This document shows positions 30,616 through 61,600 of a DNA stretch of 64,000 bases, in pieces. Source of the DNA: Neoechinorhynchus agilis (Eukaryota > Animalia > Acanthocephala); assembly GCA_051530055.1 (NCBI GenBank), contig CM121341.1, positions 9,960,784 through 10,024,783 on the forward strand, given 5' to 3'. Each line of letters begins with the position of its first letter. The first letter of the stretch is position 1. A program made the position numbers and the translations under genes. The notes below the pieces were generated by a model. It made no database searches. It had not been told where the DNA came from and saw only the letters and a list, made by a program, of their open reading frames with translations.

Positions 30616-31944
30616 ATGGATTACGAAAACGATCCTTATCGTCACCCAGGTTATGAGAAGCAAAGACAGCGGCGACTAGACGCCTATCGTGGGATGCGGA
30701 ATGCAAGATATATGCAATCAGATGAATACAAGAATCTTTCAGGCCCACCCCCATATTACGGACCATCTCGTGGAAGAGGAAGGAGCATGTTTCGGAGGCG
30801 AATGCTCGAAAAGACTCAGACGAACATCCAAGCGGCCAAGATAAGCAAAGATGCCACCCAGTCCATTACACAACGTCTCGAAAGCACACAGCGAGACTTA
30901 CATGTCATCGAAAGATATGGCTCGTCCTACGTGACACTAAGATATCTTCCCGGAGTGCCAAATCTCCTGCCCTATCTATCTCCGCACATTCAAGACCAAA
31001 GCTCAGTCAATCTAGCAGCAGCGAAGATAGTTGAATCACTGGCAATATCGGCGTATGTTAATGAAGTAACAGAAAATGAAAATGGACTTGTGTCCGAATC
31101 GTTTAATACAATGTGGAAGACGTCCGCAATCGCGACTCCCAATGTATTTTCGATGATTTCTGCTCTACGACCGATCAAAACTGAAGATTTTATCATTGTG
31201 AAAAGGCAAAAAGAAGTTCCAGACGAGCTACTGACCAAGACGTCAGGTACAGTGCTCAGACTAGAACGATATTTGACTTACGTCAACGACCCGATTATGA
31301 TGGGCATGATTAGCGCGTGCCACCAAGTATCAACCGAGGCTCAACTCAAGACGGCAATAATTCGAAGAGCCCGTGCCCATGTCGCAATGTTGCCTAACAC
31401 AGTGGTTGATGTCGATTTCGGGGAAGTGATCGACTTCTTATCGATACCACCAGTCCGGACGAAAGATAAGCAATCAGTGATTCAGGTGATGACAATGTTC
31501 GGTTGTTCCAGACATGATGGTTGGGGAATAACCAGGAATGTGGAACTGGAGGACGTTTCGATTGAAAGTTTGTTCCGGCAATTCAGAACTAGTTTTACTA
31601 GAACTGATTTAAACAATTATTTGGATCTGACTGTTCCGATAAGCGAGAGTAATGTTGCAGTTGTTGATCATATCACACCTGTTAACTACTCTGACAGTAC
31701 AAGCAATCCTCTTCATGGTATCAGAGAGTGGAAAATATTCGATCCAATACGGTATGAGCTGCCATACAGAATGAAGCGAAATGTCTGTGGTATGTTCGTA
31801 AGCAGCTTTCTGAGATTGTACGATGTCTCAGATGTTGGAGAATTGAATAAGATGCATCTTCAGGCGAAGGCATCATGTATTCAAATAGACGGTCCGAATC
31901 ATGCCGTCGTGCGTCAGCTCGGCGTCGCTGTTCAATTCATGTAG
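30616..31944 (+). CDS. Intact intronless 442-aa orphan protein; candidate RNA-virus structural (capsid or nucleocapsid) gene
   Basis: Uninterrupted ATG-to-TAG ORF among decayed TEs, with no TE or host motifs recognised. The N-terminus is Arg/Tyr/Pro-rich (RGRGRSMFRRR). Viral origin is inferred, not shown. Confidence 0.7.
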   Translation: MDYENDPYRHPGYEKQRQRRLDAYRGMRNARYMQSDEYKNLSGPPPYYGPSRGRGRSMFRRRMLEKTQTNIQAAKISKDATQSITQRLESTQRDLHVIERYGSSYVTLRYLPGVPNLLPYLSPHIQDQSSVNLAAAKIVESLAISAYVNEVTENENGLVSESFNTMWKTSAIATPNVFSMISALRPIKTEDFIIVKRQKEVPDELLTKTSGTVLRLERYLTYVNDPIMMGMISACHQVSTEAQLKTAIIRRARAHVAMLPNTVVDVDFGEVIDFLSIPPVRTKDKQSVIQVMTMFGCSRHDGWGITRNVELEDVSIESLFRQFRTSFTRTDLNNYLDLTVPISESNVAVVDHITPVNYSDSTSNPLHGIREWKIFDPIRYELPYRMKRNVCGMFVSSFLRLYDVSDVGELNKMHLQAKASCIQIDGPNHAVVRQLGVAVQFM

Positions 31945-32659
31945 CGAAGGCTACATGGTACGGTCGATTTTGTGGCAAAGTCGACTAGTCATTACTACAC
32001 CTAGTTTCCGGGGAGGTTAGTATGACGAGACGCATCCTTCTGTGTATTTTTGAACACAAAAATTTTGTGATCGGAAAACGCGCCGCATGTATCGCTTGAG
32101 TAATGTTTTTGCAATAACGCGTTGTTGGTTGGGGAGTTTGGATGAAACATAATTCAAAAAATGTGTTTGCATTTATCCGTAAAGTGATAATCAAAAAAAA
32201 ACATTTTTACGTTTTAAATGCCATTTAACTGATGTCTACAAAAAGTATTTGTTTGCCAAAAAACAAATGTTTGCAGCGCGTAGTTTTGCTGTTGATAAAA
32301 ATTGCGCTCAGCAAAAAAAAGCTTTTTAAAAGATCCGGATCCTCTGGATGATAGAGGAGGAGGTATGTATGAAGCTTTGGATGTGGATAAAGAGGAGGTA
32401 AGTGCGTGTGTATGTGAGACGGGAATCGGTCAATACGATCCTGCCGTTGTTTCCTCCATGTTGCGTGAATGTGAGACAGTTAGATCTTCCATAGATCATT
32501 CCACCTTTTTTCCCTCCCACATTTCCCCTTCACAATCCATGAAAGGTTTCAAACGACTTACCAGAAAAGAAGACCATATTGTCAAAATTGTTAAGGAAGA
32601 ATCGGGAGACCGTACTTTCTCATTCCTGACCAAGTCATTCTTCTCAAAGTTTCTTCTTA

Positions 32660-33170
32660 CTAAAGGTTACGCTTCAAGAAACTACAATTCAAAAAGCTTT
32701 TTCGCACCAAGTTTGCTTCCATATTGGGTAAAGAGTTATTCTTGAAAATGCTTAAAGAGCTACATATTAAGTGCGTTGATATGTCACGTAGAGTGACATT
32801 CCTTATGTATAACCCCCCACTGATCTTTCTCAGGAGGAATTTGCGGATATCCAAAAAGAATTCGGGATTTCTCCAATAAAATATTTCAAAAGACATCCTA
32901 ACTCTGAACCCCATGACCTAACGTGCTCAGCTCCTCTAAATATCGCTGAAAAATCCGTGGCTCTGGACTAGGGATTAGATCGCACTGGGTCACTTTTTCT
33001 GCCCTTAAAGGGTCAATTTATGACTTTAACCTTATAATTTGTCAAAAATGCTCCCGCTGGGGTCATATGGCTTCTAATTGCCCACATAAAGCAAGGTACC
33101 TTCTATGTGCTGGAAGTCATACAAAAAAGGAGTGTCCGGGAGAGTCGATAAAATGTGCAAATTGCTCCGA
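32660..33170 (+). mobile_element. LINE ORF1 fragment duplicating ~34610-35125
   Basis: Near-identical sequence to 34610-35125, including CPHKARYLLCAGSHTKKECPGESIKCANC. Confidence 0.72.
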
Positions 33171-39545: not shown

Positions 39546-39653
39546 GGTAGGAGCTTTATTTGATCCGTTCTCGCTTTACGTTTGATCAATTCTTGAGGCA
39601 CTGGCTGATCCGGACGATCCTCCGTACTATTTGAATCTCCTCCTAAGCAAACG

Positions 39654-40466
39654 GTGGTGCTCGCAGGGATGCAGGATCTCAATCGGTCAACAGAGGCTAT
39701 GGAGGACTTGTCCCTATTCTCCAGAGTGCAATTGGACAAGCTTGAGGATTGTTCAGGAATAGAAAAATCTTGTATCACAATGTTTCGTGACGCAATGCAC
39801 GCGCGGGGGAGTACAGCTTTCAAGGATTCCGCAAAAACCTCGGCGGAGATAGCCATTCAAGAGCACTTCCACAGCTCCAATTGGACCAAGCTGCTGAGAA
39901 ACGTCCCCTATGATCAGAGGGCCGCAGCAACTCGCCTCATGGCCAACTGCCTGCGCAACGTTAGATGGAATGACGTCAACTCCTACCTCACTAGGCTCAA
40001 TGAACAAGCAGTCCGGGCTCTAGAGGGTGCGGCAAACGCCTTTGATCGCCGTCCTGCCCTAGATTTTGCGGATTGGCGCAAATGGGGAAATAAGACCAGG
40101 GAGAAATGTGCGAAATGGACCGTGACCAGGGCCCCCAACGCGCAGGAGTACACGGACGCCTTGTCAGGTGGGCGTTCCATCTTGACCTGGCTGTTGAATC
40201 ATAATCCAGGGGCAATTGGCGAATATCCGAAGAACGCGCAGTGGGCGGCGGTGAAAGCAGAAAGCATCATGGTCGAGGCGGCGATCAAGGCGGTTCCTCA
40301 GGAAGAGCAGGAAGCCTTGGAAGTTCTATCGAAAGAGGCATTGGTTGAGAGTCTCACCATGAAAGCCGGCGTCCTCCCCGCCGCGGAAAAGAAGTTGCTG
40401 ACTGGGCTGAAGAACATTTCCGTGAATGCTTTCAAATTGCGGTTGGTGAATATGGACAAGAGGTAA
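39654..40466 (+). CDS. Intronless 270-aa orphan ORF, helical-looking; possible viral nucleoprotein fragment
   Basis: Open frame with Ala/Leu/Arg-rich composition and no TE motifs. It begins ~110 bp after the truncated Gypsy pol, and the true start is uncertain. Confidence 0.55.
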   Translation: MVLAGMQDLNRSTEAMEDLSLFSRVQLDKLEDCSGIEKSCITMFRDAMHARGSTAFKDSAKTSAEIAIQEHFHSSNWTKLLRNVPYDQRAAATRLMANCLRNVRWNDVNSYLTRLNEQAVRALEGAANAFDRRPALDFADWRKWGNKTREKCAKWTVTRAPNAQEYTDALSGGRSILTWLLNHNPGAIGEYPKNAQWAAVKAESIMVEAAIKAVPQEEQEALEVLSKEALVESLTMKAGVLPAAEKKLLTGLKNISVNAFKLRLVNMDKR

Positions 40467-41419: not shown

Positions 41420-42550
41420 TAAAAGAAAATTGGGATACCGACGTTAGCAATAATTTCGAGAAATATTACTTACATTGAGCCGCTCGTCAACGGTACGAAC
41501 GTTCCACCGCTCGTTCCAAAATCGCTCGATTCATCGGAGAACAAAAAAGAACGATAGGAGGAATGGGAATGCAGCGATAGAAAAAGGACGGCGATTTGGA
41601 AGGTACGAAAAAACAGAAGAATTCACGGTCTGTGTAACGATTTGGCGCACGTTTAAAAAAATTGTCGTCATTTTTCATGTGTTTTTAGTACATGATAAAG
41701 GCACGATATCATGCCGAAATATTGGATTTAATAAATTCCTTTAATTTTTACTTTTACGGATCCGTAATCCACTCCAAATTCAGGTGATCACAAGGACTTA
41801 TCAAAATAAAACGTGATTTTATTACTATAAACAAGAATTGTCTAAGTGGTTTTTATATTCGCAAACATGATAAAATCCTACTTCGATAAAGTATGCAATA
41901 CAAAATAGTAGAATTTGAAATTCCGTTACAAATGAAGATGTATAAATTCATTGCCACGACGGAAGCTCACACGGGCGACTCATAAAGAGCCATAGAATAC
42001 AGTACAACCGAAATAGCAGTCTAAACATTTTAATCAATGGGAATATTTGGCATACCGCAAGGGAGTTGAAATTAAATACATCAAAACCATCCGAATTTAA
42101 TCAACTTTTAAGATACAAAAACTGCGTCAGCAATGGCGATGGAATCGCTTCGAACCGAATTTTCGTTTTTTATCATTAACAAATATTATTTGCAAAATAT
42201 GAATATCAACTAATTCTTAAACCGATCTGCATTAGAAATTGTTTTCCACTAGCACAAGATTTTAATCTTCAGTTTAATAACAATCATTACTTTCCTTCGA
42301 ACGCGATACTTTTTAAGAATTCTGAAAAATCGAGATACATTTGAATTTTTTACAACGCCGTTTATTTTGACGTGAAGTTTACAAACTTTAAAAGTCTTAA
42401 TACAGATTTTTCCATTTATGTTCATTATTAATGGTTTATTCGCCTTCAAACTGCTACTTTATGTTGTTCTTACTTTCTGCTTTTGGAATGTTTGTCCAAT
42501 TGTCTTTCAAAAAGTTTTTGAAGAGTCGCCAATCTCCGTCTTTTCGGAAG
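41420..42550. repeat. ~1.1-kb local duplication (further copies at ~47660-48690 and, partially, ~50400-50670)
   Basis: Near-identical sequence by eye, for example ...ggatccgtaatccactccaaattcaggtgatcac... and ...aatggtttattcgccttcaaactgctacttta... Confidence 0.88.
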
Positions 42551-42815
42551 CCTTCTGTTTGCGCAGGCTAGAAGACGGCTTGAAGATTTCCAATTTCGTC
42601 GCAATGCGTCTCCCCATAATTAGTTCGGATGGACTGCGGTTTGTTGTCGCCTGTGGAGTATTGCGATAACTCAAAAGAAATCTCTGCAACGCTTGCGGGT
42701 GATCTTTGCTCGAAATCAATAGAGCTCTACTTTTCAACGTTTCGCGAGCCCGTTCGTCTTTGGATGGTATGTTGAACTCTTCACGTGCTCTATTCCGTTG
42801 TTTTGGCAAAACGTT
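42545..42815 (-). mobile_element. Gypsy integrase C-terminal fragment
   Basis: ALQRFLLSYRNTPQATTNRSPSELIMGRRIATKL. Confidence 0.72.
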
Positions 42816-43544
42816 TGGAAATCGGATGCAATTAATTAGGGTCCATTGTCAGAAACAATCTTCTCGGGAACACCTCGATATTTAAGCCGCTTCGTTTGCT
42901 TACCTCAGTTCATAAATTGCCGCGCAATCGGAAATTAACAAAAAAAAACGCTTTTTCTCCTAATCATATGGACCGATTGGGGTTGTAGCCAGAAATTTTA
43001 AAACCCATTTCATTTAAAAAAGTAAAAAACCTAATTGCAAACTAACGTTGCAACGGAGAATGTCAAACCGCCAGCCAATGTTTTGTAAAAGTTCACTTAC
43101 CCTCGGAGTGGAGATTGTTGCCTCGGATACAAAACCTCATCTCCTGGAAAAGGATGTCCAACTCGAATAACCTCGTGCCTAGTCGACATTTTCAAACGTA
43201 AATCAGAAAGCATATTTCGCCTATCTCACTAAAAAGTGGCCACCGGTCATGCTCAGACAATTATTGTAAAACGGTTACCCGATGGCTTGTTTGGAGCAAT
43301 GAGGTTCTACCTAACAACCCAAATGTGGCTCTCACCCTTTCACGACTTCATTAATTTCAAACTACCCAGCGATATCTTCACAGTCTTCATAAAAAGTTCA
43401 GTTCCCTGCCAAAGGACTTCAACTGTAAAATCAAGTTCCGTCTAATGATGGAAGCCTCTCGACACGTTTGAGATCATTTATGTTCGCAGCAATCCTGTGA
43501 GCTAAACTGCTTTAAGATTCGCTTCTCGCCTGCGATCTCAATGG

Positions 43545-46500
43545 ATGGCGGCTGAGTTGGTAGACGCTACTACCACCAGCGAGCCGAACCATCCTAAGAA
43601 TTCGGTTACGTCGTTGACGTACGGTGCCTTCGATGTGAAACTTAACGATCTTAATGGACCGCGACGTTGTCGCTATGCTTTCTTTACAAATGGTGCTGAG
43701 GCGGTTTGCGATGGCGTTCTTTCTTTACTCTCGAGATATCCACAGACGGTCTTGGATGGTGTCCCTGAGCATTTAAAGAATGTTTTCAAACAAGGTGGTT
43801 TTAGAGTAAAACAACTCCATTTGTTATCGAACCCCCTTACTTCACTGATGTGCTTACTCTATTAAAAGAGGTTCTTTCGCGAGTTGGTCAATTATGTTCA
43901 TCTGACTTGGTAACGGTGAATAGGTTCTTTCAAGATGGGGTTGTCCCGGCTAAAGTTTCGGTATCATTGATGAGCGAAGCTCTTTCTAAACTTTCGGACG
44001 GGAAGTGTCCCAATTGCGGGTTTTTCCTTGTTGAGCAGAGGCATGAGTGCGTCAGAGCCGTCTCTTGGGCTCACTTCCTATTTAATCGGATTTTCAGCAC
44101 AGGCTTATTGACCGATGAAATGCACTTGCGGCATTTGCTTCATTCGACTTCCAATGGCCACGTTTATAAGCCCTTTACTCGCTCTATTGGTTGGTAGCCG
44201 CTCAGCTCCACCAATTGATTTTGCCTAGTAGCTCCTGCATCAGCAGTCATTTGATCACATTACTCGGAGTGCCGATGTGTGATTCTGTTGAACTAACTAG
44301 TTTTGAATCGCAAATGGAATTAGTGACTCGTGTCATTTTGGACCGAGCTAAACATTCAATTAAAGATCTTCTTTCAGATATGGTTGAGGAAATCGTCGGG
44401 TCAACATTGATGACGCCAATCGTAGAAGATAAGAGAAGTGCTCCAATGAATCCCGTCGTTAGTCCCTCACCTAAAACGGTTATGAACAAGGTACCTGTTG
44501 ATAAAGCTGCGGTTGATCAGACAGCGCTGAGCGAGTCTGCCTCAGATATAGTATTCCCAAGCGACGCTGAATTGGTTTCTAGTCCGAGTGCGAAGGATAG
44601 AAGAAGTAAACTCCGCAGCGATTTGAAGGAGCTTCTATCTATGAAAAGAGATTACACCCAGAAGCTGCTCTCTGATTATGAAAGTAACATAACGGTTGCA
44701 CGCGAAACGTGCAGAAAACATCCAACAGCGATGGCCCAGGCCCTAGAAGATCTGCTGTAGTGTGTTTCGCAAACATCAGCCTCACTCGCAGTGATTGAGC
44801 AGGTCTTGGAAGAGATTCAGGCAATGGTCCACCTTGAAGATATCCCTCTTTTGGCATCATATCAAGATGACCGCGATATCGACTCTTTGGCAACAGGTCC
44901 CACAGACTTGGGAACTACATTCACGGCATATATTGCTAGAGGGTTGGCCTCTGAGAATACGGGTCGAGTATCAGTCACGGCGTGTCGGGCAAACCGTGGT
45001 AGTTCGAGATTGGCTTTCACGCCTACTGACAGAACTGGCTCATTTTCGCGCGATCTAGATGCTATGATAAGAAATGTAGCTTACCCTGACGGACCGGTTA
45101 GCGATGTGCTAATCAATGATAGAGCTCAGAACCTTGAGAAGAAAGTGCGAAACGGTGTTCGTGTTCGCTCTTACTTTCTTCTCAATAGGATCGGCAATTC
45201 AAAGAAAAGATTATTGGGTTTATGCTTCGCTCATAGGCATAATCCACCCATGCTCAGGGCACTGGCGCGGGATCTTCATTCCCGTAAGCAGGGGCTATGC
45301 GCGGCCTTTTGCAAGGAGTTGGAAGCGCTAGGAGAATCAATGGAGCTTGTGGAGAAGGCCGAGTGGTGTATCTCCCGGCGAACTGCTTTATTGTCATCGG
45401 TTCGGAACAGACACTTCCGACATTTTTGTTCACCAAGGTGGTTATCTGTGGGTGCAGTCAGAGCTTTGGCTGGGGACGGTGTGAGCGTTTTCTTCACGTC
45501 TTACATCTCCACCCTCCTAGCTGGGCCTGACGGCTACTCACAACGCCTTTCCGATGAATGGAACAAGCTTATGGACTCTATTAATGGCAACCCCATATTC
45601 GTTCCCTATCTCCCGCTGGGATATCAAATGTCTTGTCAACGGATCATTTCCACAAATGTGCCATTCGAATCGACTCTAGTCCTGGCTGGGAATCGTTCCT
45701 TCTTCCGATCGCTGCCGACGCAGCAAACTTTCTACATAGCTAATCAAAGACTGTCTTGTTGACCGAGATGCTTCTGGCCGCGGCGCGTGAATTCATTTCG
45801 AAAAAGAAGATAGCTCAGGACTATGCGTTTTTGGAGGAGGCTGAAACTCGGTTCTATCGTGGTCAATCAGTAAGATTAGCTGGAACTACTCTACCGATCT
45901 GGTTCTCATTTGGTTTCGTGTATGCACATTCCGGGATTATAGGCCCGAATACCACCGACCGCGGGTTGTGCGACGATAAATGATACTGTCGAGGTCGAAA
46001 CTCTAGGTGCAATGGAGGACAAGGCTTTACGCACTTTAGCCACAGGCCCCTGCTGGGATCGTTCCTTCCACTGGATCACCTCAGATGATATCGGCCCATT
46101 AGCGAAAATTGATTTTTCCAGAGTGCTGAACATAGTGCATCATTTGAGTTCAATGATACATAGACGAGATGGCTCGCCGGCTACGTTCGCTAGGCTGAGA
46201 ACATTGCTGTCAAAGGATACAGACCCGAACGTTACGTGTCCTCCCCCAAACGGTATAACCAATCTAGAGGGCTCCATGAGCCGCTTCTGGGCAACCCAAC
46301 CTTTCGAAGTCCTCTGGATACGCATGCCGGTTATAGAATTCCTTCGTTCGATAGCCGCTAACTCTATACGCTGCACTGAAGGTGCAGACGAATACGACGT
46401 ACCATTTGCGGGTAATGTTGCTGCCATGATGGAACAGTGGTTCTCGGACCCGGTTGAACAGCTTTTCCGTATGATCAGGAGAAACGCCGAGACGCTGGAG

Positions 46501-46800
46501 GAGTTTGAGGAGGTAAAGACAAGGGTTTGTTTTAAAAAGTGTAAATGAAATGTGGGCATCCCATTTAAGGTTTTCTTGTAAAATCACGCCCAGAATTCGG
46601 AGAGAAGAGGAGCGTTGGATTGGGAGAGGCGCGGGAATAAGGTTGCGTTTGGAAGGAGGGGAAGGTACGGCGACTATCCTTGCCTGTCAGCGTGATCGAC
46701 AGTTGCAAGCGGCTGCAACTATACGTACAGCAGTTCAGACGGCACTTACTAGCTATTGGGAGACTGAAACAAAATTCTCAGTTCACGTTGAAACTATCTG
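43545..46800 (+). pseudogene. ~1000-codon intronless polyprotein-like coding tract broken by a few frameshifts and stops; unknown, possibly viral
   Basis: Abutting or overlapping ORFs 43545-43865, 43850-44197, 44191-44760, 44791-45762, 45756-45983 and 46012-46480. A CPNC...HEC motif is present. GC content is higher than in the host genes, and no RT, IN or transposase motifs were found. Confidence 0.6.
46482..46653 (-). mobile_element. Internal fragment of the CR1/L2 family seen at 13227-16014
   Basis: Matches 13740-13910 and is flanked by AGGAG at 46477-46481 and 46654-46658. Confidence 0.8.
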
Positions 46801-46843
46801 ATTTTATTTTTTAAGTTTTACTGGCAAGCCGGTATGTTATGAT

Positions 46844-46959
46844 ATTCAATTTTAGTCAATCCCTTTCTTGTCCGGCTCAATTCAATTTTAGTCAATCCCT
46901 TTCTTGTCCGGCTTAATTCAATTTTAGTCAATCCCTTTGACTAAAATTGTTGACTAAAA
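46844..46959. repeat. 36-bp tandem repeat (about 2.5 copies) ending in inverted TTTTAGTCAA/TTGACTAAAA boxes
   Basis: attcaattttagtcaatccctttcttgtccggct(c/t)a repeated, then ttgactaaaattgttgactaaaat. Confidence 0.85.
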
Positions 46960-47663
46960 TATCTGATTTTAGTTTGGTCAAATTGAAAGTCCAGGCATTA
47001 GCTTCTTCGCCATACACCTCAGTAGCTGAAATCCGTTACGCTGCTGACTGTAACACTCGTGAGGCCTATGAGATTCTAGGTGTTTCTTGTCGCAATCTTA
47101 GGGTGGCTTACAAACTCAGCCTGGCCTTGACCTTCATCTACTCAAAAATGACTAAGTCGCTGGCTGACTTTTGGCTCGAGGAGTCTGCAACTATGCCTGC
47201 ACACCTCACGAATTCAATACATCCGGATGTAGTAACGATGCTAAATGCCGAGTCTGCCAAGCAGAGGTGGAAGCGAAACTCGCACGAGGCGGCGTGCGGG
47301 ACGGGGCTCCAGGAATGCTTCACGGCAATGAGAAACGTGCGCGAGGCTCTGCAACTGTTGCGAAGGTTGTTTTCCGCGGCGAAACCATGCTGCCAAGCTC
47401 AGATCAGACGCTGGCTCACACCTGATTTGTTTGTTTTTGGCGACTCAAGAGAGGAAGGACACCCAAACTGGAACCTTGCGCGCGCGGCGGCGGAGCCAAA
47501 CGCGCTGTTATCGAAGAGGCAACTTCAATCAGCGGACTGGGTCAGGTTGCTCAAAGAGGAAGAACTCATTGCAGCAATACGGTCAAACTTTTCTGATCCA
47601 CCGCGTTACTCTGCGCTCGGCCATTCACAGCTTCGTGGCCCCCATCCCAGGCAGCGACGTTAG
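46947..47663 (+). CDS. Intronless ~238-codon orphan frame, 3' end truncated by the duplicated repeat; possible viral protein fragment
   Basis: Long open frame without a canonical ATG start and with no TE motifs. It runs into the 47660 repeat. Confidence 0.5.
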   Translation: MLTKISDFSLVKLKVQALASSPYTSVAEIRYAADCNTREAYEILGVSCRNLRVAYKLSLALTFIYSKMTKSLADFWLEESATMPAHLTNSIHPDVVTMLNAESAKQRWKRNSHEAACGTGLQECFTAMRNVREALQLLRRLFSAAKPCCQAQIRRWLTPDLFVFGDSREEGHPNWNLARAAAEPNALLSKRQLQSADWVRLLKEEELIAAIRSNFSDPPRYSALGHSQLRGPHPRQRR

Positions 47664-48690
47664 CAATAATTCCGAGAAATATTACTTACATTGAGCCGCT
47701 CGTCAATGGTACGAAGGTTCTACCGCTCGCTCCGAAATCGCTCGATTCATCGGAGAACAAAAAAAGAACGATAGGAGGAATGGGAATGCAGCGATAGAAA
47801 AAGGACGGCGATTTGGAAGGTACGAAAAAACAGAAGAATTCACGGTCTGTGTAACGATTTGGCGCACGTTTAAAAAAATTGTCGTCATTTTTCATGTGTT
47901 TTTAGTACATGATAAAGGCACGATATCATGCCGAAATATTGGATTTAATAAATTCCTTTAGTTTTTACTTTTACGGATCCGTAATCCACTCCAAATTCAG
48001 GTGATCACGAGGACTTATCAAAATAAAACGTGATTTTATTACTATAAACAAGAATTGTCTAAGTGGTTTTTATATTCGCAAACATGATAAAATCCTACTT
48101 CGATAAAGTATGCAATGCAAAATGGTAGAATTTGAAATTCCGTTACAAATGAAGATGTATAAATTCATTGCCACGACGGAAGCTCACACGGGCGACTCAT
48201 AAAGAGCCATAGAATACAGTACAACCGAAATAGCAGTCTAAACATTTTAATCAATGGGAATATTTGGCATACCGCAAGGGAGTTGAAATTAAATACATCA
48301 AAACCATCCGAATTTAATCAACTTTTAAGATACAAAAACTGCGTCAGCAATGGCGATGGAATCGCTTCGAACCGAATTTTCGTTTTTTATCATTAACAAA
48401 TATTATTTGCAAAATATGAATATCAACTAATTCTTAAACCGATCTGCATTAGAAATTGTTTTCCACTAGCACAAGATTTTAATCTTCAGTTTAATAATAA
48501 TCATTACTTTCCTTCGAACGCGATATTTTTTAAGAATTCTGAAAAATCGAGATACATTTGAATTTTTTACAACGCCGTTTATTTTGACGTGAAGTTTACA
48601 AACTTTAAAAGTCTCAATGAAGATTTTTCCATTTATGTTTATTATTAATGGTTTATTCGCCTTCAAACTGCTACTTTATGTTTTTCTTAC
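47660..48690. repeat. Second copy of the 41420-42550 duplication
   Basis: Direct near-identity with 41450-42470. Confidence 0.88.
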
Positions 48691-50300
48691 TTTCTTCGAG
48701 TAGGAAATGTTGCTTTCTGCGAGGGTTTCCACACACGTGGCGTCCCAGAGAAGGCATTTGCCCTCCCGCCACGGAACGAGACCATGTCTCCCGAAAGCAT
48801 CAACCAAAGACCCACATCGACAGCGATGGGATGTGCATATCGGGAGACCAAGTCTTAAGGATATTGCGATCCTCGTTACCTCGTCAGTAAGAAGAGTTCC
48901 CACTGATGCCAGAGGAACAGCCTCCAACCACGCCCCGATTCTCCTGTCGAAACTACCAACAATCTAACTCGGACGACCCATCGCAAGAACCTGAAAGTAG
49001 AGAGCTGTTAGCTCCCGCGACGAGCGGTCTGTCCCGGATCGACTGTCTGACGCCATTCACGGGAACATAGTTAACGCCTCTCTGCTGGCACCATTCTTTA
49101 ACTGCCACCACAGTCCTGGATAAGACAAAACTTTCCCCTCAGAATTATCTTCGCTATCGGTTGACGCCCCTCATACGATCCAAGAAAGGCTGGCGAGGCA
49201 AGGTCTACTAGCGCCCGAATGCCCAATCCCCCAGATGACACAGGCAATTGAGCTTCTCGCCACGCCTCATCTGAGAGCTGGACATTTAAAATGCGCTCGA
49301 GACAAGCCATCATCTTGTCGTCAAGCTTAGCCAATCCGTCCTTATGTTTGAAGAATGTTGCTATGCGGACCTTATATAACAATTTCGGAATAAAGAGTGC
49401 GTTCTTTATCAGAAATAACGCTTCGTGAGCCGATAGAGCGCTCACCCTATCGCACAGCAACGAAAGTTTCGGTATGATATGGCCGATCTCATCTTCCACA
49501 TTTGAATCAAAGACGACATTACCAGGGAGGCTGAGTTGTTCTCGAGTCACGAGTTTCAGACCTGGAGCTACGGCCTCAAACCCATCCATTAGCTCCTTGA
49601 TTTTGGCGGCGTCTTCGATATTTAATACTAGGAGCTCACACTTTCCACCATTAAGCTCAACGCCCCAATAACCGAACAGCCCCTGAACATCTCCGTCCGC
49701 AAGCTTCGAAGAGACACGTTCAGTCAGTGATCGTTTTGAAAAACGGCAACGAAACCCTTCCTTCGTGCGTCCTTTACGAACCTCGCGAAATTTCATTTCG
49801 AAATTGTTAAATATCTGATCGAAGAATTCCACCCTTCCCTTGATTGTTGATGTCAAAGACACCCCAGAATCATCACTGGTGCAAAGGACTAAGCGCTGGA
49901 ATGCGAAGAGCCGTGTCCATGATGGCGTACAGTTCTTTTGGAGGCAATCGTTGAGCAATCCGGTAAATGCTTTCGCGACCTGATATCGTGCGCCCCTTGG
50001 GATCTGTTTCAGGACGTTCCTGGGTAGAACCCGCACGATATCAAGTATCGAAATGGAGTCAGTGGTGATCTGAGAAGTCCCAGGCATAAACAGATCGGTT
50101 GATTGTGATGGAGAATCAGGCCAGCCACAGCAGAGATCCCGGAGACCATGGGTAAACAAAAACCCCAATTGGTTAATTTACAAGATTTACCGAAAACCGA
50201 ACACATACCAGTAGAGACGTGTGGTAGCCCGGCAGCGTTGGTCTTCTCAGGTTGAGAGTGATCGATAAGTGGATCGTTCAAGGTGTCTGCGTTGAGCGTT
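48690..50300 (-). mobile_element. CRE-like RLE LINE with the RT core deleted
   Basis: Homologous to 5890-8720. The N-terminal Zn finger region is joined directly to WGVELNGGK...SSGGLGIRAL and PWREGKCLLWDATCVETLA. Confidence 0.88.
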
Positions 50301-50577
50301 TCCTCGGTCTTTTCACTTGACTCATTTTGGGCGGGCAAGTTTCCGTCTTTATATTGTCGTCGGGCATCGAGGTTACGAGCGAAGCGAGGAACGTGCCGTC
50401 CGTATAATCATTACTTTCCTTCGAACGCGATACTTTTTAAGAATTCTGAAAAATCGAGATACATTTGAATTTTTTACAACGCCGTTTATTTTGACGTGAA
50501 GTTTACAAACTTTAAAAGTCTTAATACAGATTTTTCCATTTATGTTCATTATTAATGGTTTATTCGCCTTCAAACTG

Positions 50578-51240
50578 CTACTTTATGTTGTTCTTACTTT
50601 CTTTTTTGGAATGTTTGTCCAATTGTCTTTCAAAACGTTTTTGAAGAGTCGCCAATCTCCGTCTTTTCGGAACGTAAACATGTTCAATGTCCTTAAACTC
50701 AGTTGAAATCATCTGACCAACTTTCTGGCGAAGCAATGAACCATCTTTAGCTCGATAGAATATTTTTCTTAATTTACCGAAATTTCGGCTTACCGATTCT
50801 ACATAATCGAATAGTTCCGAATACTCTTTTATTAGTTCCTTATCAAAGATTGCACTTAAAACTGTTTCTGCTTCATTTTTCGTGTGCCCATATAGTACAG
50901 CATCAACATCAGCAAAATTGTATAAAACATTTTTACTTGCATCTTCTTCTAAAACACTTAAATCTCCAATTGAAACCTTTTTAGAATTCAGTACAAACGT
51001 AGATTTTCGGCCAGAACTGCCGGTTATTGTCAATATGTTCCTTCCTTGTTCGTCGATTTGAATGCATTTTTCAACACTTGATTTACTAGTCAACAATGCA
51101 ATAACATCTTTCTTGAGTTGAAAAATCGAGTATGATTTATCTATCGGTCTATCCTTTTTGTAAATTTTGTATTTATTTGAATCGATACATTGAGTAGGAG
51201 GTTCCTGGCAAACATCATTTAGCTTTCTTTTATTTGTCAT
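50578..51240 (-). CDS. Orphan ~220-aa basic protein (probable start MTNKRKL at 51240)
   Basis: Intronless open frame with NLS-like KRKL and PKRRRL; no family recognised. Confidence 0.5.
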   Translation of the reverse strand: MTNKRKLNDVCQEPPTQCIDSNKYKIYKKDRPIDKSYSIFQLKKDVIALLTSKSSVEKCIQIDEQGRNILTITGSSGRKSTFVLNSKKVSIGDLSVLEEDASKNVLYNFADVDAVLYGHTKNEAETVLSAIFDKELIKEYSELFDYVESVSRNFGKLRKIFYRAKDGSLLRQKVGQMISTEFKDIEHVYVPKRRRLATLQKRFERQLDKHSKKESKNNIK

Positions 51241-51500
51241 CTGAAAAAAGGACCGCGGTTTCGTTAAAATCCTTTCATAATTACAAACACTCAGTAAAAG
51301 GTAAACAAGAGCAATTGAACTATGAAGTGAAAACCGAAACTGGTCATAGAAACATTTTCCGCCAGTTGATTTGCTAGCATTTAAACCAAAAAAGAAAAAA
51401 CAATTTAAAAATATTGGCATATATTAAAAACCATCAAGGAAATAAACAAGGAAAATAGAATTAAAAAAGAAGTTCCAACACAAAAATTTCTCTTTTTTGT

Positions 51501-52791
51501 TTATAAGGCATCTTTACGATTCCATCTCAAAATCTTTGACAATTCATTTAGTAACTCGTTGATTCCGTCTTCTACCCCATAGCCCGTGATTCCACTGCAT
51601 TCCTTATATATTATGCGATGAGTATTGATTAAATCGCCAATAATGTCCAACTTTTCTCGTATTTCGTCTTCATTCATTGCACCCGGTATGTGGCACTTTT
51701 GTTGCAAACGCGAGGATTCAATTTATAATGATTGACACTGGATAGAAAAGTAATGGGTCTATAAAATTATTAATATATCAGTTCGTAAGGACGATCGCCA
51801 AAGAAGACGATTGCATGTTTTTTAGTTTAGATTGGAAATTCAAAATTACTTAGGTGGACTTTGCAGTTACAAACTAAAAAGTCAAAGATTCTGTTACTCG
51901 CAAAACGCATTTGCTAAACAGTTAAGGAAAATGCGACTAAAACTAACCGCCGAGTTCTTGATATACATTAGCGAATATTGGTTACCTTTTGTTTTATATT
52001 AAATTAAGGCAAAAAAACCAAAAATGCCGGCTTTAAAAAAATATTGGTTGACGATCAACATTCGAAACATAATCCCAATTTTAATGGGTTTATTTGTTTA
52101 TTCTTAAACGCAACAATTCTACTTATGTTTGTTTATGCCGGTGAAAAATTAAAACGAATTATTTCGGCAAGGCACAATCTTGTACGCATTCTTTATCAAG
52201 GTTGCTTAAGTGTCTCATTCGCATTGCGACCTTGATAAAGAATGTGTACAAAATTGCGCCTTGCCGAAAACAACCGGACGTAATAAATTCTTTTAATTTT
52301 TCACCGGCATAAATACCAGAATAATTCAATCTTAAAGCAATTCAACATATAAATCGCATAATATTTTATCTATTTAAATTTCCCACAGACAAAAGTACCA
52401 TCCGTATGTCGTGCTTATTGCCGAAAATTAGAAAGAGTGCATTGTTCAATCTTGGTTCAGCTAATAAATTTCCGAGTACTCGGCGGCATTCCAGAATTCT
52501 GTCCGGAGAAGCACAGTCAACGACAAAAATTACAACGTGTGTCCGTTCAAAGTACGTGTCCCAATATTGGCGAATGGAAGCTTGGCCACCAACATCCCAA
52601 ATATTCATTATAATATCGCCAAGCGTCTTAGTTCGGATGTCTAGGTTGAAGGATGGAGCGATGGAGTCAACATCTTCATTGAACATTTTATGAAGAATAG
52701 TTGTTTTGCCGGCGTTGTCGAGGCCTAGCATTACTATTCGAATAACTTTGGATTTGTGGAGACGCTTTCTCAGCACAGTCAGTAAAACCAT
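51501..52791 (-). CDS. Arf-like small GTPase, Arl2/Arl3-like; two coding segments (52791 to ~52400 and ~51700 to 51501)
   Basis: GLDNAGKTT, NIWDVGGQ and GNKHD in the first segment. IPGAMNEDEIREKL...CSGITGYGVEDGINELL in the second matches the Arl2 C-terminus. The splice junction is uncertain. Confidence 0.85.
52132..52313. repeat. Fold-back (MITE-like) element in the Arl intron
   Basis: Arms tttatgccggtgaaaaattaaaa...ctttatcaaggttgc and gcgaccttgataaag...ttttaatttttcaccggcataaa around a ~20-nt loop. Confidence 0.8.
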
Positions 52792-53958
52792 CTTTAAAAA
52801 GAATTTTAGTATATCAACGATACAATCTTTATTTTGGCAATAAACAACAGGTTATATGAAGTGCCTGAATTTTCTAGACCAATAAATCTTTACCAAACTG
52901 TATTGATTTTAAAAACGAGAATCGATAAATCGTAGCGATGATCATAAAGTGACTTTTACTAGTTTGAATCTCTAATTTAAAATTTTACACTACAAAACAA
53001 ACAATTTGTTATTGTGAAGTGAGCAATCAAAAGATGTAAAAGGAAAGAAAATCGTTTGGAATCGATTTTTGAAAAATTTCAAAATGGTTTGAAATAGAAA
53101 AATGAAGGAACATACAACTCCAATATTATTCATGGATAAACGCAATTTCAAAAGGTTACTTGAGATCGAGGGTTTAAAATCGTAATATACAAAAAACTAA
53201 TGTGAAATAAACAAGGAACATCTTTTCAATGTTTAGATTGGAATTTAAGTTCTCTGCTAAGATGGACAATGTTGACTATTTCGATTTTGGTTTGAATTTT
53301 GTAAAATCTTAAATCCATTTCTATTTTGAGGAAGTTGATCAATAATATTATTGTTCATTTCGAAGAATTATCATAAAAAATTCATTGGGATGATAAAGTT
53401 CGAATTGCGGTGACATATTTTTATTGATATGAAATATTTCGAAAGAGGAAGTCTTATTGTTTAATTGTTTCATTCGCAATCCAGGATTACCATCACCATA
53501 ATTTAAACAAATTATATGAGCATTTAAGCGCTAAAGATGTACGCTGTTGCGATTCCACGTACTATGTTCAAAAATTTGAGGAGCATTTAAGAGAATTCAA
53601 ATATTTCCACAGGGCAAAAAGGGAAAAAATAAAAAACTACTATGGGAGAATACCACGAATGTAAATATCGACCAAACTATTTTAACAGTGCGCAAAGCCT
53701 AAACCAGTAGATAATGGGTTTTTAATTGTAAATCAGGAATAGATGACTTAAGAGATCGGATTTCAATGTGGAATACAAAATAATGTGGGCGCATTTTGAA
53801 GACCTTTTAGATGATGTGAAATAAAGACTTGCGTGGGTTATGTTTAATGAATGTAACACGATATAAAAGTTAGTAAGACGGAGATACCCACAATTCAATG
53901 AGTGAGGATTATAAATAGCATGATTTTTGCGGCTTCCGTAAGAGTGAAATCGCATTGC

Positions 53959-56900
53959 ATGGAGAGCGACGAATCCGCCGTGAGGACTATATGCATGTTA
54001 AAGCTGCTAAGCGGAAAGCAGCTTGAGAAAGCTATAAACCTCTTCACGGTAAGTGCTATTAAGTAATCTCATTTGAAATGCTACTCGATTTTCCATCCGC
54101 ATGATCAAGTTTTGTTTTCGAAAATGAACACTTGGGAGAGAGGATGATCAAGCTTTCGCCATCTTTCGGCTTTAGCTCAAGAACCTACAAAGGTGCGTGG
54201 AAATCTGAAGTGTGTTAGCGACGTCCAGAACTCTCCTTCGCATTATCTGCGGAAACGCCATCCCTTTCCCTGATTCCTGAAGAAGCCGTAAGATGGTAAA
54301 GTTCGAAAATAGAGATTTTCTTTTTTTATCATTACAACAACCCGCCCAGGTGTCATTTTCGAAAACAAAACTTGGTATTAAGAGTAGTTTAATGATTCAC
54401 CCAATCGTTTTTGTAGAGTAAATCCATTATCGTCGAAGACGTGGAGGAAATGGAATCTAATGAAGCTCATACGATCTATAAACTTCAGTTACGTATGGAT
54501 TCTGAAGAGCTAGCGAGGACTTTAAAATGGCTGGACGGAGAAGTCCTCAAATTCTCGTTTAGTAGCAAATTCTCGAGTCAGAACGAGAAAAAGCAAGATA
54601 AGATTCAGGCCTTAAATGATTTGTTTAAAGATATACCAATGTCGCCCTTCGCTGATGTAGACTTGCATCGGATTCGACAAGAAGGTACCGAAAAAAATTA
54701 ACACTTTAGAAACTAACCTAAAGAGGTTAGTCGATGCCGCGGAGACGCCGTGGTTCCCTATAACCTCAGCGGAAATCGATCATTGCAGTAAAAAGGTGCT
54801 TTTGTATGGAAACGATGTTCAATTTGATTACCCGGTAATTATAAAATATAACTTGAGGTTATTACTACACAAAATACAATTATTCGGTGATTTTGTATCC
54901 TACACTAAAATGGATGCGACCATTCGATTCTCCGGGTCAAGAATGAAGAGAGCATAAATGATCTTTAACGAAGCGTCTTTCAGCGTGAGGATTTCAATAT
55001 TGGGGTGTTAGTCGTCCATAGCAAAATATACCGTCATTTTTTTTACAATTGCAGGTTTCCTATTAGACTTAAATTGAAAGCTCGAATATTCTAAGTTTCT
55101 TTTAGTATACTTTTCATTTTATGTGCTCCATTTAATGGTTTAAAATAGGGTTACGAACGTGAGGACTATCGACAAAGAAGATATTTGTTAGGACAACTGG
55201 CGATGAATTACTATCAGTAAGCGTTTTGCTTGAAATCGAAATCCCGAAGCTAAATTTTTTTAGTAAAAACCCAATTCCGAGAATTCAGTACAACAATGAA
55301 GAGTTTTCTACATGGTACATCTCGTCTAAGACATTTAATTTTCTAAACAATATATAGGCAAATGATATCGAAAACGCTTAGTAACGCTTATCCGATTTAT
55401 GCTTGTCGAGAATTCTACACAAATTTTAACGAGCTCATAAAAAACATTGACTACGGGTAATATCAGTTAATAACAAATGCTAAAAAATAAAAAGTATAAA
55501 AATCGAAGGTCGTCAGAGATTCCACAATTGGCGGATGTTAATGAGCACGTCAAGTCAAAAACGGGATTTTCACTTCGACCAGTAGCTGGATACCTAAGCC
55601 CGAGAGACTTTCTTTACAGTCTTGCGTTTCGAATATTTCCTTGCACTCAATATATCCGAATGTCGACGAATGTGGACTATACTCCGGAACCTGACTGCTG
55701 CCATGAGCTTCTAGGGCATATTCCGATGCTTATAGATCAAGAATTCACCGAATTAACACAGAAAATCGGATTGGCTTCGATCGGTGCGAATGAGGAAGAT
55801 ATAGAAAAATTAGCAAAGGTTAGCGTCAAAGATCAAATTTTCATTTTAATATTCTAGGATTAGTTGTATTTCTTCACTTTGGAATTTGGTTTATGTGTCG
55901 AAGATGGGAAGATTAAAGCACTTGGAGCAGGGTTGCTATCTTCTCCAAAGGAGCTTCAGGTAAGATCTTGTGGGCTGGAAAGGTTGAAAATTTCGAATAA
56001 TGATGGCAGTGGATAATCTTAAGCGATAAAATGATTCAAAGTGAAGAATAACTTCAGATTACATTAGAAACACGTCGTTTATCCGCGAATTAATTGGGAC
56101 ACCATTCGGATAAGAAATTTTTTAGGATAACCGAAATCAAATGTAACTTTATTGTTAAATATACATCAGAACGTCGTTTATTCGCGAATGAATTGTGGCC
56201 GGTCACCATTAGGATACGAAATTTTTTGAGGATAACCGAAATGTTGTGTTCGTAACATGGGCGGGAAATTTGTTTTAAGAAAAGCAAATTTAGTGTAGAA
56301 AATTACATAATTTAAGCGTTATTGTTGGAAATACATCAGAACGTCGTTTATCCGCGAAATAATTCGGACCGGGCACCATTCGGATACCAGATCTTTTTGA
56401 GAATAACCGAAAACCCGACGTAATTAGTTTATAAAGCTAGACTAATCTTATATGGCGCAACTAAAGAATTATAGATTAATTTAATTAATTTTCGGCCTAA
56501 GCGTGGGCCATCTTCAGATATTGTTTTCGGAGGACTCGAATTTTCCTCCGAAAACAATATCTGAAGAAGGCCCATGCTTAGGCCGAAAATTAATTAAATT
56601 AATATATAGTTCTTTAGTTGCGCCAAATATTAATTTACTAATCTTATAGACTCACGTATTAAAAACTTACAAACAATACTGAAGAAGATCCGAGATAGAG
56701 GATCGAAATATTTAATTTAATTAAATTTAATTACTTTCTCCACTCGAACAAAATAATCTTATAGCAACATCAGTTGAGTGGATCAGCAATCCGGATAAAA
56801 TTGACGTTCCACTGTATTTTTAAAAAGAATTATAAGCTTAGAACTTTTATACCTCGAAATTTAACGGCACAATTTTACTCAAATTTGTTTAATTATTGCT

Positions 56901-57282
56901 AAAATTAATTTTTTTTTCAAATTTAGCACGCAGTAACTTGCAAGAATCGTCAAATTTCCATGAATCCTGAGAACATCCTCAAAGCGGAATGTATGATCAC
57001 AAGTTTCCAAAATCAGTATTTTGTAGCTAAAAGTTACGGAGAAATGATAAAAATCATCAGGTGATTCAAAGATATTTTCTCAAACGCCGAAAAAAACACA
57101 ACTAAACTTCGAAAATATTTAGCGATTTCTGCGACTCAATTTCAAAACCGTTTCAAATGACTTACGATCAGGAGACAGGATCAATCGAGATAATGAGCTG
57201 TTTACCAAGAGCAGGAAAATTGCTGAGGGATATTGAATCGGATATTGCCATTGTCTTCAACGTCCCGGAGTCAATCGTTTAG
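53959..57282 (+). CDS. TPH: Biopterin-dependent aromatic amino acid hydroxylase, most like tryptophan hydroxylase; about 10 exons
   Basis: GT-AG exons give MESDES...NLFT; [14 protein letters not shown]...FDYP; [11 protein letters not shown]; [15 protein letters not shown]; [13 protein letters not shown]...[16 protein letters not shown]; [10 protein letters not shown]...GAGLLSS; [13 protein letters not shown]; stop at 57280-57282. GYLSP and ECxITxFQ are TPH-type. The Fe ligands (HELLGH, EFG) are retained. Confidence 0.88.
56066..56420. repeat. Three diverged ~90-bp repeat units in a TPH intron
   Basis: acgtcgtttat(c/t)cgcgaa...caccatt(c/a)ggata...ataaccgaaa at ~56072, ~56170 and ~56341. Confidence 0.75.
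56453..56625. repeat. 173-bp near-perfect palindrome whose arms carry hammerhead-like cores
   Basis: Arms of ~82 bp (tggcgcaactaaagaa...cggagga / tcctccg...ttctttagttgcgcca) with a 9-nt loop. The right arm has CTGAAGA-A-GGCC catgctta GGCC-GAA-AATT at 56561-56591. Confidence 0.82.
56674..56716 (+). ncRNA. Hammerhead-like motif of the same family as the Penelope 3' end at ~16440
   Basis: CTGAAGA-A-GATCC gagataga GGATC-GAA-ATAT-T; stem I is imperfect. Confidence 0.5.
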
Positions 57283-58620: not shown

Positions 58621-61600
58621 ATTATGATCATCAAAAGTTCATTTCGAGAATATTTTGAATGAGTCTAAAAGCCTAAGATTAAAAATATTCCCGAAATGAA
58701 ATTGTGGTGATTATAATGCCGGATATTTTCGGTAAACAAATTTTTATCCAGGATTATGATAAACACAAGTTCATTTCGATAATATTTTGATTCTATTCAA
58801 TTGTTGCCGGATATTTTCGGTAAACAAATTTTTATCCAGGATTATGATAAACACAAGTTCATTTCGATAATATTTTGATTCTATTCAATTGTTCCTTCGA
58901 ATGGATTTGTATTCTCAATGGCGAATTGTAACACATTCGAGTTTTATTATTGAACTCTTCATTGCGAATCTTCAAGGCCTCATCTCGAGTGTGTAACAAT
59001 TCGCCATTGAGAATAATATTTTGAATGAGCAAACAAAATTATTCTCGAAATAAGATTGCGGTGATCATAATTCGGGATATTTCAGTAAACAAATTTTATG
59101 ATAAACAAAAGTTCATTTCGAGAATATTTTGATTCTATTCAATTGTTCCTTCGAATGGATTTGTATTCTCAATGGCGAATTGTTACACTGTAGTTTTATT
59201 ATTGAAATCTTCATTGCGAATCTTCAAGGCCTCATCTCGAGTGTGTAACAATTCGCCATTGAGAATAATATTTTGAATGAGTAAACAAAATTATTCTCGA
59301 AATAAGATTGTGGTGATCATAATTCGGGATATTTCAGTAAACAAATTTTATGATAAACAAAAGTTCATTTCGAGAATATTTTAATTCTATTCAATTGTTC
59401 CTTCGAATGGATGTGTATTCTCAATGGCGAATTGTTACACTTCGAGTTTTATTATTGAAATCTTCATTGCGAATCTTCAAGGCCTCATCTCGAGTGTGTA
59501 ACAATTCGCCATTGAGAATAATATTTTGAATGAGTAAACAAAATTATTCTCGAAATAAGATTGTGGTGATCATAATTCGGGATATTTCAGTAAACAAATT
59601 TTATGATAAACAAAAGTTCATTTCGAGAATATTTTAATTCTATTCAATTGTTCCTTCGAATGGATGTGTATTCTCAATGGCGAATTGTTACACTGCTCGA
59701 GTTTTATTATTGAAATCTTCATTGCGAATCTTCAAGGCCTCATCTCGAGTGTGTAACAATTCGCCATTGAGAATAATATTTTGAATGAGTAAACAAAATT
59801 ATTCTCGAAATAAGATTGTGGTGATCATAATTCGGGATATTTCAGTAAACAAATTTTATGATAAACAAAAGTTCATTTCGATAATATTTTAATTCTATTC
59901 AATTGTTCCTTCGAATGGATGTGTATTCTCAATGGCGAATTGTAACACATTCGAGTTTTATTATTGAAATCTTCATTGCGAATCTTCAAGGCCTCAGCTC
60001 GAGTGTGTAACAATTCGCCATTGAGAATAATATTTTGAATGAGTAAACAAAATTATTCTCGAAATAAGATTGTGGTGATCATAATTCGGGATATTTCAGT
60101 AAACAAATTTTATGATAAACAAAAGTTCATTTCGAGAATATTTTAATTCTATTCAATTGTTCCTTCGAATGGATGTGTATTCTCAATGGCGAATTGTTAC
60201 ACTGCTCGAGTTTTATTATTGAAATCTTCATTGCGAATCTTCAAGGCCTCAGCTCGAGTGTGTAACAATTCGCCATTGAGAATAATATTTTGAATGAGTA
60301 AACAAAATTATTCTCGAAATAAGATTGTGGTGATCATAATTCGGGATATTTCAGTAAACAAATTTTATGATAAACAAAAGTTCATTTCGATAATATTTTA
60401 ATTCTATTCAATTGTTCCTTCGAATGGATGTGTATTCTCAATGGCGATTTGTAACACATTCGAGTTTTATTATTGAAATCTTCATTGCGAATTTTCAAGG
60501 CCTCAGCTCGAGTGTGTAACAATTCACCATTGAGAATAATATTTTGAATGAGCAAACAAAATTATTCTCGAAATAAGATTGTGGTGATCATAATTCGGGA
60601 TATTTCAGTAAGCAAATTTTATGATAAACAAAAATTCATTTCGAGAATATTTTGATTCTATTCAATTGTTCCTTCGAATGGATGTGTATTCTCAATGGCG
60701 AATTGTTACACTGCTCGAGTTTTATTATTGAACTCTTCATTGCGAATCTTCAAGGCCTCAGCTCGAGTGTGTAACAATAAACCATTGAGAATAATATTTT
60801 TAATGAGCAAACAAAATTATTCTCGAAATAAATGTGATCTATTGGATATTTCAGTAAACAAAATTATTCTCGAAATAAGATTGCGGTGATCATAATTCGG
60901 GATATTTCAGTAAACAAATTTTATGATAAACAAAAGTTCATTTCGAAAATATTTTAATTCTATTCAATTGTTCCTTCGAATGGATGTGTATTCTCAATGG
61001 CGAATTGTTACACTGCTCGAGTTTTATTATTGAAATCTTCATTGCGAATCTTCAAGGCCTCAGCACGAGTGCGTAACAATTCGCCATTGAGAATAATATT
61101 TTGAATGAGCAAACAAAATTATTCTCGAAATAAGATTGTGGTGATCATAATTCGGGATATTTCAGTATACAAATTTTATGATAAACAAAAGTTCATTTCG
61201 AGAATATTTTAATTCTATTCAATTGTTCCTTCGAATGGATGTGTATTCTGAATGGCGAATTGTAACACATTCGAGTTTTATTATTGAAATCTTCATTGCG
61301 AATCTTCAAGGCCTCAACTCGAGTGCGTAACAATTCGCCATTGAGAATAATATTTTGAATGAGTAAACAAAATTATTCTCGAAATAAGATTGTGGTGATC
61401 ATAATTCGGGATATTTCAGTATACAAATTTTATCATAAACAAAAGTTCATTTCGAGAATATTTTGATTCTATTCAATTGTTCCTTCGAATGGATGTGTAT
61501 TCTGAATGGCGAATTGTAACACATTCGAGTTTTATTATTGAAATCTTCATTGCGAATCTTCAAGGCCTCAACTCGAGTGCGTAACAATTCGCCATTGAGA

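Follow-up and report, generated by a model that had tools for sequence, protein, structure and literature searches.

A decayed coding stretch in the thorny-headed worm Neoechinorhynchus agilis, probably an endogenous ORF1 fragment of a toti-like virus

The stretch of DNA analysed here (the window) comprises 64,000 nucleotides of contig CM121341.1 from Neoechinorhynchus agilis (Acanthocephala), a thorny-headed worm and parasite of fish. We hold with high confidence that positions 43545-46476 of its + strand (about 977 codons, 2.9 kb) derive from the first open reading frame (ORF1) of a double-stranded RNA (dsRNA) virus of the Ghabrivirales that has yet to be described, an ORF predicted to encode the capsid polyprotein, and are preserved as an endogenous fragment. 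The stretch would be the degraded middle part of a toti-like ORF1; it runs collinear with the paralogous protein models P0004, P0006, P0015 and P0022-P0024 of the same species. Relatives of this ORF1 adjoin a toti-like RNA-dependent RNA polymerase (RdRp), and the window stretch is therefore likely to be an endogenous viral element (EVE); comparison of the sequences supports the viral origin of the window copy strongly, albeit indirectly.

Seven + strand ORFs follow one another at the locus (43506-43865, 43805-44197, 44170-44760, 44761-45762, 45744-45983, 45943-46548 and 46517-46801), and 43545-46476 is broken by four changes of frame (near 43805-43862, 44170-44194, 45744-45760 and 45918-45980) and a single in-frame stop (44758). 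The longest stop-free run within these limits, 333 aa, was reached by none of 1000 first-order Markov simulations (mean 114); such a length is beyond chance. A sequence-only reading of the window had joined six ORFs into a coding run of about 1000 codons and 3.2 kb; its coding nature holds, but the run is shorter, and the last ORF it took in (46655-46801, +) is unrelated to viral ORF1, matching no relative in any of the three + frames when set against the paralog continuation. The remaining pieces align in order with one long protein, and the third through the sixth are continuous in the relatives. Judged against 200 shuffles for each piece-paralog alignment, piece A (43545-43862, +) displays weak in-order homology with a QGGF motif (z 3.2-5.6 against four paralogs, exceeding the best shuffle in two of the four), and piece B (43805-44197, +) is firmer (z 9.8-11.7 against four paralogs). 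Piece C (44170-44760, +; z 12.6-28.8) contains a Ser/Pro-rich linker and a basic helical stretch and ends at the stop at 44758. Piece D (44761-45762, +) is the best conserved, with 50-60% identity to paralogs across long blocks and z of up to 140. Piece E (45744-45983, +) shows in-frame deletions relative to the paralogs (z 8.1 against P0004, and a tblastn match with P0023), and piece F (45943-46476, +; z 78 against P0004, 54% identity to P0023) loses its homology exactly where a piece of a long interspersed nuclear element (LINE) begins.

Several features claimed from the letters alone can be placed on this alignment. The proposed CPNC-x9-HEC zinc-binding-like motif is present as CPNC (44006-44017) and HEC (44042-44050), of which the CxxC is conserved and the HEC is private to the window copy, being found in none of the four relatives. 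All four relatives whose models span the region instead keep the CxxC and a WAH (44066-44074) 16 residues downstream, which we regard as a possible zinc site. The Ser/Pro-rich linker was correctly seen: 44407-44604 has 27% Ser plus Pro against 12-17% alongside. A crude test of the coiled-coil suggestion, the share of hydrophobic residues at heptad a/d positions, gave a best value of 0.47 against 0.31 overall. The absence of a recognisable transposable element (TE) domain also holds, with zero Pfam families at E<=0.05 in all seven pieces; gag, protease, reverse transcriptase (RT), integrase, endonuclease and transposase domains are absent from these pieces and from the ORF1 part of the paralogs, and the neighbouring TE ORFs do match Pfam.

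The family is, as far as our searches reach, confined to this worm. A phmmer search with pieces C-D against 1.84 billion representative proteins returned 12 matches at E<=0.001, and the 11 that were looked up (every one but P0013) all proved to be hypothetical proteins of N. agilis, the window locus itself accounting for two; in a second search all five matches were likewise from N. agilis. P0014, P0015, P0022, P0023 and P0024 were added from cluster members and from one more search, bringing the total to 14 named models outside the locus at no fewer than 11 tagged loci, all of them known from protein models alone, and the protein searches turned up no ORF1 relative from any other named organism. 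Overlap of P0006 and P0022 places the full ORF1 at about 1,680 aa, of which the window copy covers roughly residues 250-1230 (about 60%); a two-gene structure was considered and rejected, as P0015 and P0022-P0024 run through. Identity across piece D is 68-90% among the long copies (100% in one pair) and 50-60% between these and the window copy, a pattern suggesting that several viruses served as sources and that the window copy has decayed besides. In an ORF1 tree of 10 rows, from which five short matches were left out, the window copy sits on a long branch beside P0023, its length inflated by decay. The ORF1 models of P0015, P0014 and P0004 lie on separate unplaced contigs (20, 20 and 59 kb) and are 99-100% identical; together with an internal partial repeat in P0015, this would fit tandem amplification or uncollapsed haplotypes.

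The link to a toti-like virus comes from these paralogs. P0015 (ACOME3_010716) extends through the C-terminus of ORF1 (~1540) into an RdRp (RdRP_1 E 1.9e-7; RdRP_4 E 2.8e-5), whose motifs A, B, C and E (DHSxFDEHQ, LPSGWxWT, GDDS and DFLG) resemble those of tapeworm viruses. A search with this RdRp region gave six matches, namely two N. agilis models and four viruses at 32-33% identity (E 1e-54 to 1e-68), and all four viruses are toti-like: Schistocephalus solidus toti-like viruses 3 and 1, Molussus totiviridae 1 and Triaenono virus 1. At a second locus an ORF1 gene (ACOME3_000485, 1246 aa) and an RdRp gene (ACOME3_000486, RdRP_4 E 5.5e-10) carry consecutive tags on one scaffold, and the two genes diverge from P0015 to a matching degree (57% identity for ORF1, 61% for the RdRp); a 58,976-nt contig also holds both kinds of gene (ACOME3_010464, 010468 and 010452). 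The order ORF1 then RdRp is seen in the P0015 model and in the 000485/000486 tags. An ORF1 of about 1,680 aa and an RdRp of about 900 aa would give an estimated genome of about 8 kb, against tapeworm virus records of 7,954 and 8,181 nt. A toti/chryso-type RdRp (PF02123) is thus found in the paralogous loci, and the window copy ends before it. The earlier proposal of a sizeable piece of polyprotein from an uncharacterised RNA virus is supported, since in the relatives the pieces form a single protein with a link to a toti-like RdRp. The accompanying suggestion of an RNA virus segment gives way to a more likely first ORF of a non-segmented toti-like dsRNA virus; in viruses built on this plan the capsid is the product of the 5' ORF (PMC10819564). 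Separately, residues 417-777 of P0005 (ACOME3_009941) form a second, unrelated toti-like RdRp piece (SGDD, EFLQ; RdRP_4 E 0.065), and so more than one dsRNA virus lineage has likely been endogenised.

The element is part of the worm genome. Raw Illumina DNA reads of runs X8 and X6 and a 2990-nt contig of run X1 span 43516-46510 and cross the 5' junction at a raw depth of about 10, and no indel is listed at any frame change; the element is therefore genomic and joined to host sequence, and its breaks are real rather than the sequencing indels that had been raised as a possible cause. Depth is flat over the element (66 in X1, about 10 raw), which is the level of unique sequence and not of a TE, as against more than 20,000 and about 600 over the adjoining LINE piece at 90% likeness. 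The X1 contigs over 42520-47684 have a depth of 54-66 against 124-127 over the host genes at 50.7-56.5 kb, which, with the proviso that contig depth in one run is not copy number, suggests that the block lies on about half of the chromosomes in that run; the element is probably present on some haplotypes only. A 5-bp deletion at 44797 segregates, and 4 of the 14 listed differences between alleles of pieces C, D and F are synonymous against a chance expectation of 23.6%. These differences look neutral, consistent with decay without selection on the protein.

Whose virus it was is a question compatible with a viral and integrated ORF1. A source in the crustacean intermediate host or the fish, rather than the worm, strikes us as unlikely, even though a worm virus has not been found, a similar caveat attaches to the rhabdovirus-like elements of Pomphorhynchus laevis (PMC12548735), and tapeworms and copepods appear to exchange toti-like viruses (PMC10287012). 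The copies fall into several lineages (50-90% identity among them) at 11 or more tagged loci, which is easier to obtain through infection of worm cells, and the nearest named RdRps include those of tapeworm viruses that PMC7305300 describes as vertically transmitted.

A number of points weigh against the viral ORF1 reading itself. ORF1 has no direct match among viral proteins in Pfam, PHROGs, a PDB profile search, the ESM Atlas or viral contigs. Its pieces belong to no Pfam or PHROGs family; the ESM Atlas gave nothing usable for piece D and a best value of 0.75, at chance level, for P0004; PDB by sequence gave nothing for P0015 and only E>=0.35 for the ORF1 profile, and PDB with the RdRp profile gave picornavirus polymerases only, weakly. 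Scans of viral and metagenome contigs for ORF1 or the RdRp recovered zero relatives, and no living virus of the worm was found in our searches. AlphaFold models of ORF1 from the single sequence and from the 10-row alignment were unusable (pLDDT 32.4 and 30.8). The link between ORF1 and the RdRp is drawn from gene models rather than DNA, and models in these clusters are chimeric: P0005 fuses ORF1, broken off midway, to an internal part of a different RdRp, P0007 joins ORF1 to a gag knuckle and another ORF, P0010 joins it to another ORF, and P0015 partially repeats both ORF1 and the beginning of the RdRp. Piece A matches its relatives weakly, the 14 listed allele sites provide little power, and we infer the capsid role of ORF1 by gene order and position alone and the route of integration from the flanks only.

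The lack of a viral homolog or fold match, and the chimeric models (P0005 with its second kind of RdRp, P0007 and P0010 with their other ORFs), would also be expected if the ORF1 family were some other mobile or viral ORF, stemming from a different class of virus or from a transposon as yet undescribed, that merely co-clusters with RdRp fossils in repeats. We consider this improbable: P0015 joins the C-terminal end of ORF1 to the N-terminal region of the RdRp, whereas P0005 joins a mid-ORF1 break to mid-RdRp; the two loci show matched gene divergence (57% and 61%); and the family lacks TE domains and has the read depth of unique sequence.

Less probable still is a domesticated host gene with short introns, akin to the co-opted planthopper NlToEVE14. 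Two NCBI gene models lie at the locus, ACOME3_002333 and ACOME3_002334 (one was found by the first protein search and the other spans the 5' part), the introns of 43-62 nt near the locus resemble some of the gaps that these models predict, and co-option of a toti-like element is documented (PMC10636211). Yet five of the six predicted gaps (25-74 nt) excise residues that the paralogs conserve (QGGF, WAH, LVAAQL, LAGNxSxFR and YAxSGxIG), and a contig of RNA run X2 runs ungapped through 43723-44285 across three of them, though at low depth that may reflect DNA carry-over. Runs X2-X4 are spliced RNA runs, as the spliced joints at host genes attest; in X2, which is shallow, host genes show such joints, whereas none of the GT-AG type is listed within the region. 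The neutral look of the allele differences also speaks against a domesticated gene. The X2 contigs over ORF1 are patchy, with a depth of 2-7 that is no deeper than that of introns and spacers (~1-13). An assembly artefact or contaminating viral cDNA, with frameshifts as long-read errors, might be suspected of a hybrid assembly that used Nanopore reads (PMC12690905) but is refuted to our near-complete satisfaction: Illumina DNA reads from X8 and X6, together with the X1 contig, cover the element and its 5' junction, and no indel is listed at the frame changes.

Both ends of the viral fragment abut repeat pieces. At the 5' junction lies a piece of an unnamed dispersed repeat (43417-43545), found also at 4843-4971 and 27632-27760 with 89-91% identity and without a Pfam match. 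The A of the ATG at 43545 is the last base common to the flanking repeat, so the start straddles the junction and is probably not the authentic viral start. At the 3' junction stands an internal 178-bp piece of a high-copy LINE (46477-46654, -), 91% identical to a donor copy at 13735-13912 that has weak RVT_1 and endonuclease matches. This had been read as a CR1/L2 piece interrupting the coding sequence within a 5-bp AGGAG duplication. The coding homology stops at 46476 and 46655-46801, beyond the LINE piece, matches no relative, so the LINE piece terminates the element rather than interrupting it; the 5' AGGAG (46477) equals the first five bases of the donor copy (13735), so a target-site duplication is unsupported, and the AGGAG may instead be junction microhomology. 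Nor does the piece show the signs of LINE insertion by target-primed reverse transcription: it is internal and 178 bp long, the AGGAG is donor sequence, and ORF1 does not resume on the far flank.

Non-retroviral EVEs arise when a retrotransposon RT copies viral RNA and template switching or recombination carries the copy into the germ line. Here, a viral plus-strand RNA would have been copied by a host retrotransposon RT (Ty3/gypsy, LINE and Penelope RTs occur in the window). Template switching onto retroelement sequence, or recombination with it, would then have taken place at both ends; the copy would have reached the germ line within a block dense in repeats and later decayed without selection on its protein. 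The block itself, 6.2 kb long, is bracketed by a 1.04-kb direct repeat (41439-42478 and 47655-48695) of 98% identity, and the end of this repeat (42282-42549) is a 99% copy of 50406-50672, the 3' end of an expressed host ORF (50578-51423), together hinting at a recent local duplication.

Downstream of the LINE piece, a separate 240-codon ORF (46941-47663, +) is joined to ORF1 in an NCBI gene model only. It is 37% identical to residues 112-189 of P0010 (z 23), with which it has a PDxFxFGDxRxxGHPNW motif in common and which also adjoins an ORF1 copy. It lacks a match to P0004 and gave nothing significant in Pfam, PHROGs or PDB (PDB E>=0.96); an apparent alignment that would have made it a later part of ORF1 was rejected (z 0.2-0.9). 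A single full-length contig of 799 nt in RNA run X2 covers it at a depth of 44 against 2-7 for the neighbouring pieces, although contigs cannot rank expression.

The first 50 kb of the window are retroelement debris, with Penelope RT and GIY-YIG, Ty3/gypsy gag, protease, RT, RNase H and integrase, and LINE RT and endonuclease domains. Within them lie at least two further RNA-virus-like pieces on the same strand as the main element. The first is a second small ORF1-family piece (531-774, +), 43 kb upstream, which matches P0004 517-598 by tblastn (E 2e-11; z 10 and 24). It falls inside a degraded RdRp piece (1-1620, +), which we take to be picorna-like from its motif B (GMPSGS..TT) and which has an RdRP_1 match of E 5e-4 at 1185-1367, under the Pfam cut-off. 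An intact ORF of 450 codons (30592-31944, +) has an Arg/Gly-rich N-terminus, 73% identity to the C-terminal part of P0007 and zero Pfam or PHROGs matches, and might be a fossil gene, for a capsid or nucleoprotein, of some other virus. A Ty3/gypsy gag-protease-RT remnant is followed by an ORF of 285 codons (39609-40466, +) with no Pfam or PHROGs match and no homology to the 46941 ORF. A candidate L protein at 32299-32745 was dropped, since it runs into a CCHC knuckle and resembles LINE ORF1.

Host genes begin near 50.6 kb, with an Arf-family GTPase and an aromatic amino acid hydroxylase that are spliced in the RNA runs, on the same scaffold as the element and 4 kb from it. They form a nested pair: the Arf-like gene (52366-57166, -) has a 4.4-kb intron (52791-57166, spliced in RNA contigs) that encloses the hydroxylase gene on the opposite strand (54416-57121, +). 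Beyond them, 58717-63300 is a tandem array of a ~255-bp AT-rich unit with internal palindromes.

The four viruses nearest in RdRp (all unclassified Ghabrivirales) share with the N. agilis lineage their RdRp motifs and, going by the gene models, a long first ORF followed by the RdRp and an estimated length of about 8 kb, but word-limited or single-sequence searches detected no similarity between its ORF1 and their first ORFs. The tapeworm toti-like viruses among them are reported not to be endogenous (PMC7305300), whereas the N. agilis lineage is known from genomic fossils only. Toti-like EVEs of arthropods (ToEVEs) number 5,686 in 593 species and, like the N. agilis copies as interpreted here, are derived from capsid or RdRp, 0.4-11 kb long, frameshifted, numerous per genome and polymorphic in populations (PMC10636211); the N. 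agilis copy differs in its acanthocephalan host, in a source clade that is associated with tapeworms and in showing no sign of co-option. The rhabdovirus-like RdRp elements of P. laevis (PMC12548735) are comparable as multiple, divergent and fragmented RNA-virus insertions hidden as 'hypothetical proteins', but they derive from negative-strand L genes on unplaced contigs of unsure host, in contrast to a likely dsRNA-virus ORF1 on a scaffold with host genes and read support. In the open-access literature they are the only RNA-virus elements that we found reported in Acanthocephala, and the N. agilis genome paper names viruses in its references only. The window copy would therefore be a toti-like EVE, an element of a known kind, in a host group for which the open-access literature yielded none.

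The element would make no working protein. If any role remains to it, the most likely, put forward tentatively, is that of a template for PIWI-interacting RNAs (piRNAs). N. agilis keeps PIWI, clustered piRNAs and ping-pong amplification, unlike the parasitic flatworms, which lost piRNAs (PMC12256650), and in sea lice the piRNAs from EVEs are mostly of the antisense strand (PMC10287012). A more far-reaching proposal, which we offer as speculation and think somewhat less likely again, is that the copies archive several members of an undescribed family-level toti-like lineage related to the tapeworm viruses, with a ~1,700-aa ORF1 unlike catalogued proteins, and that the window is a strand-biased, polymorphic piRNA cluster in which fragments of two or more RNA viruses are stored; a parasitic relative of the rotifers would then possess a heritable antiviral memory in the style of arthropods.

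These elements constitute a fossil record of dsRNA-virus infection in Acanthocephala and allow 16 N. agilis 'hypothetical proteins' (14 elsewhere and two at the locus) to be named as likely viral. They show that gene models stitch such fossils together through false introns, and they can serve as bait in existing RNA data sets for viruses still infecting these fish parasites. As N. agilis retains the piRNAs that parasitic flatworms have lost, EVE-derived piRNA immunity becomes testable beyond the arthropods.

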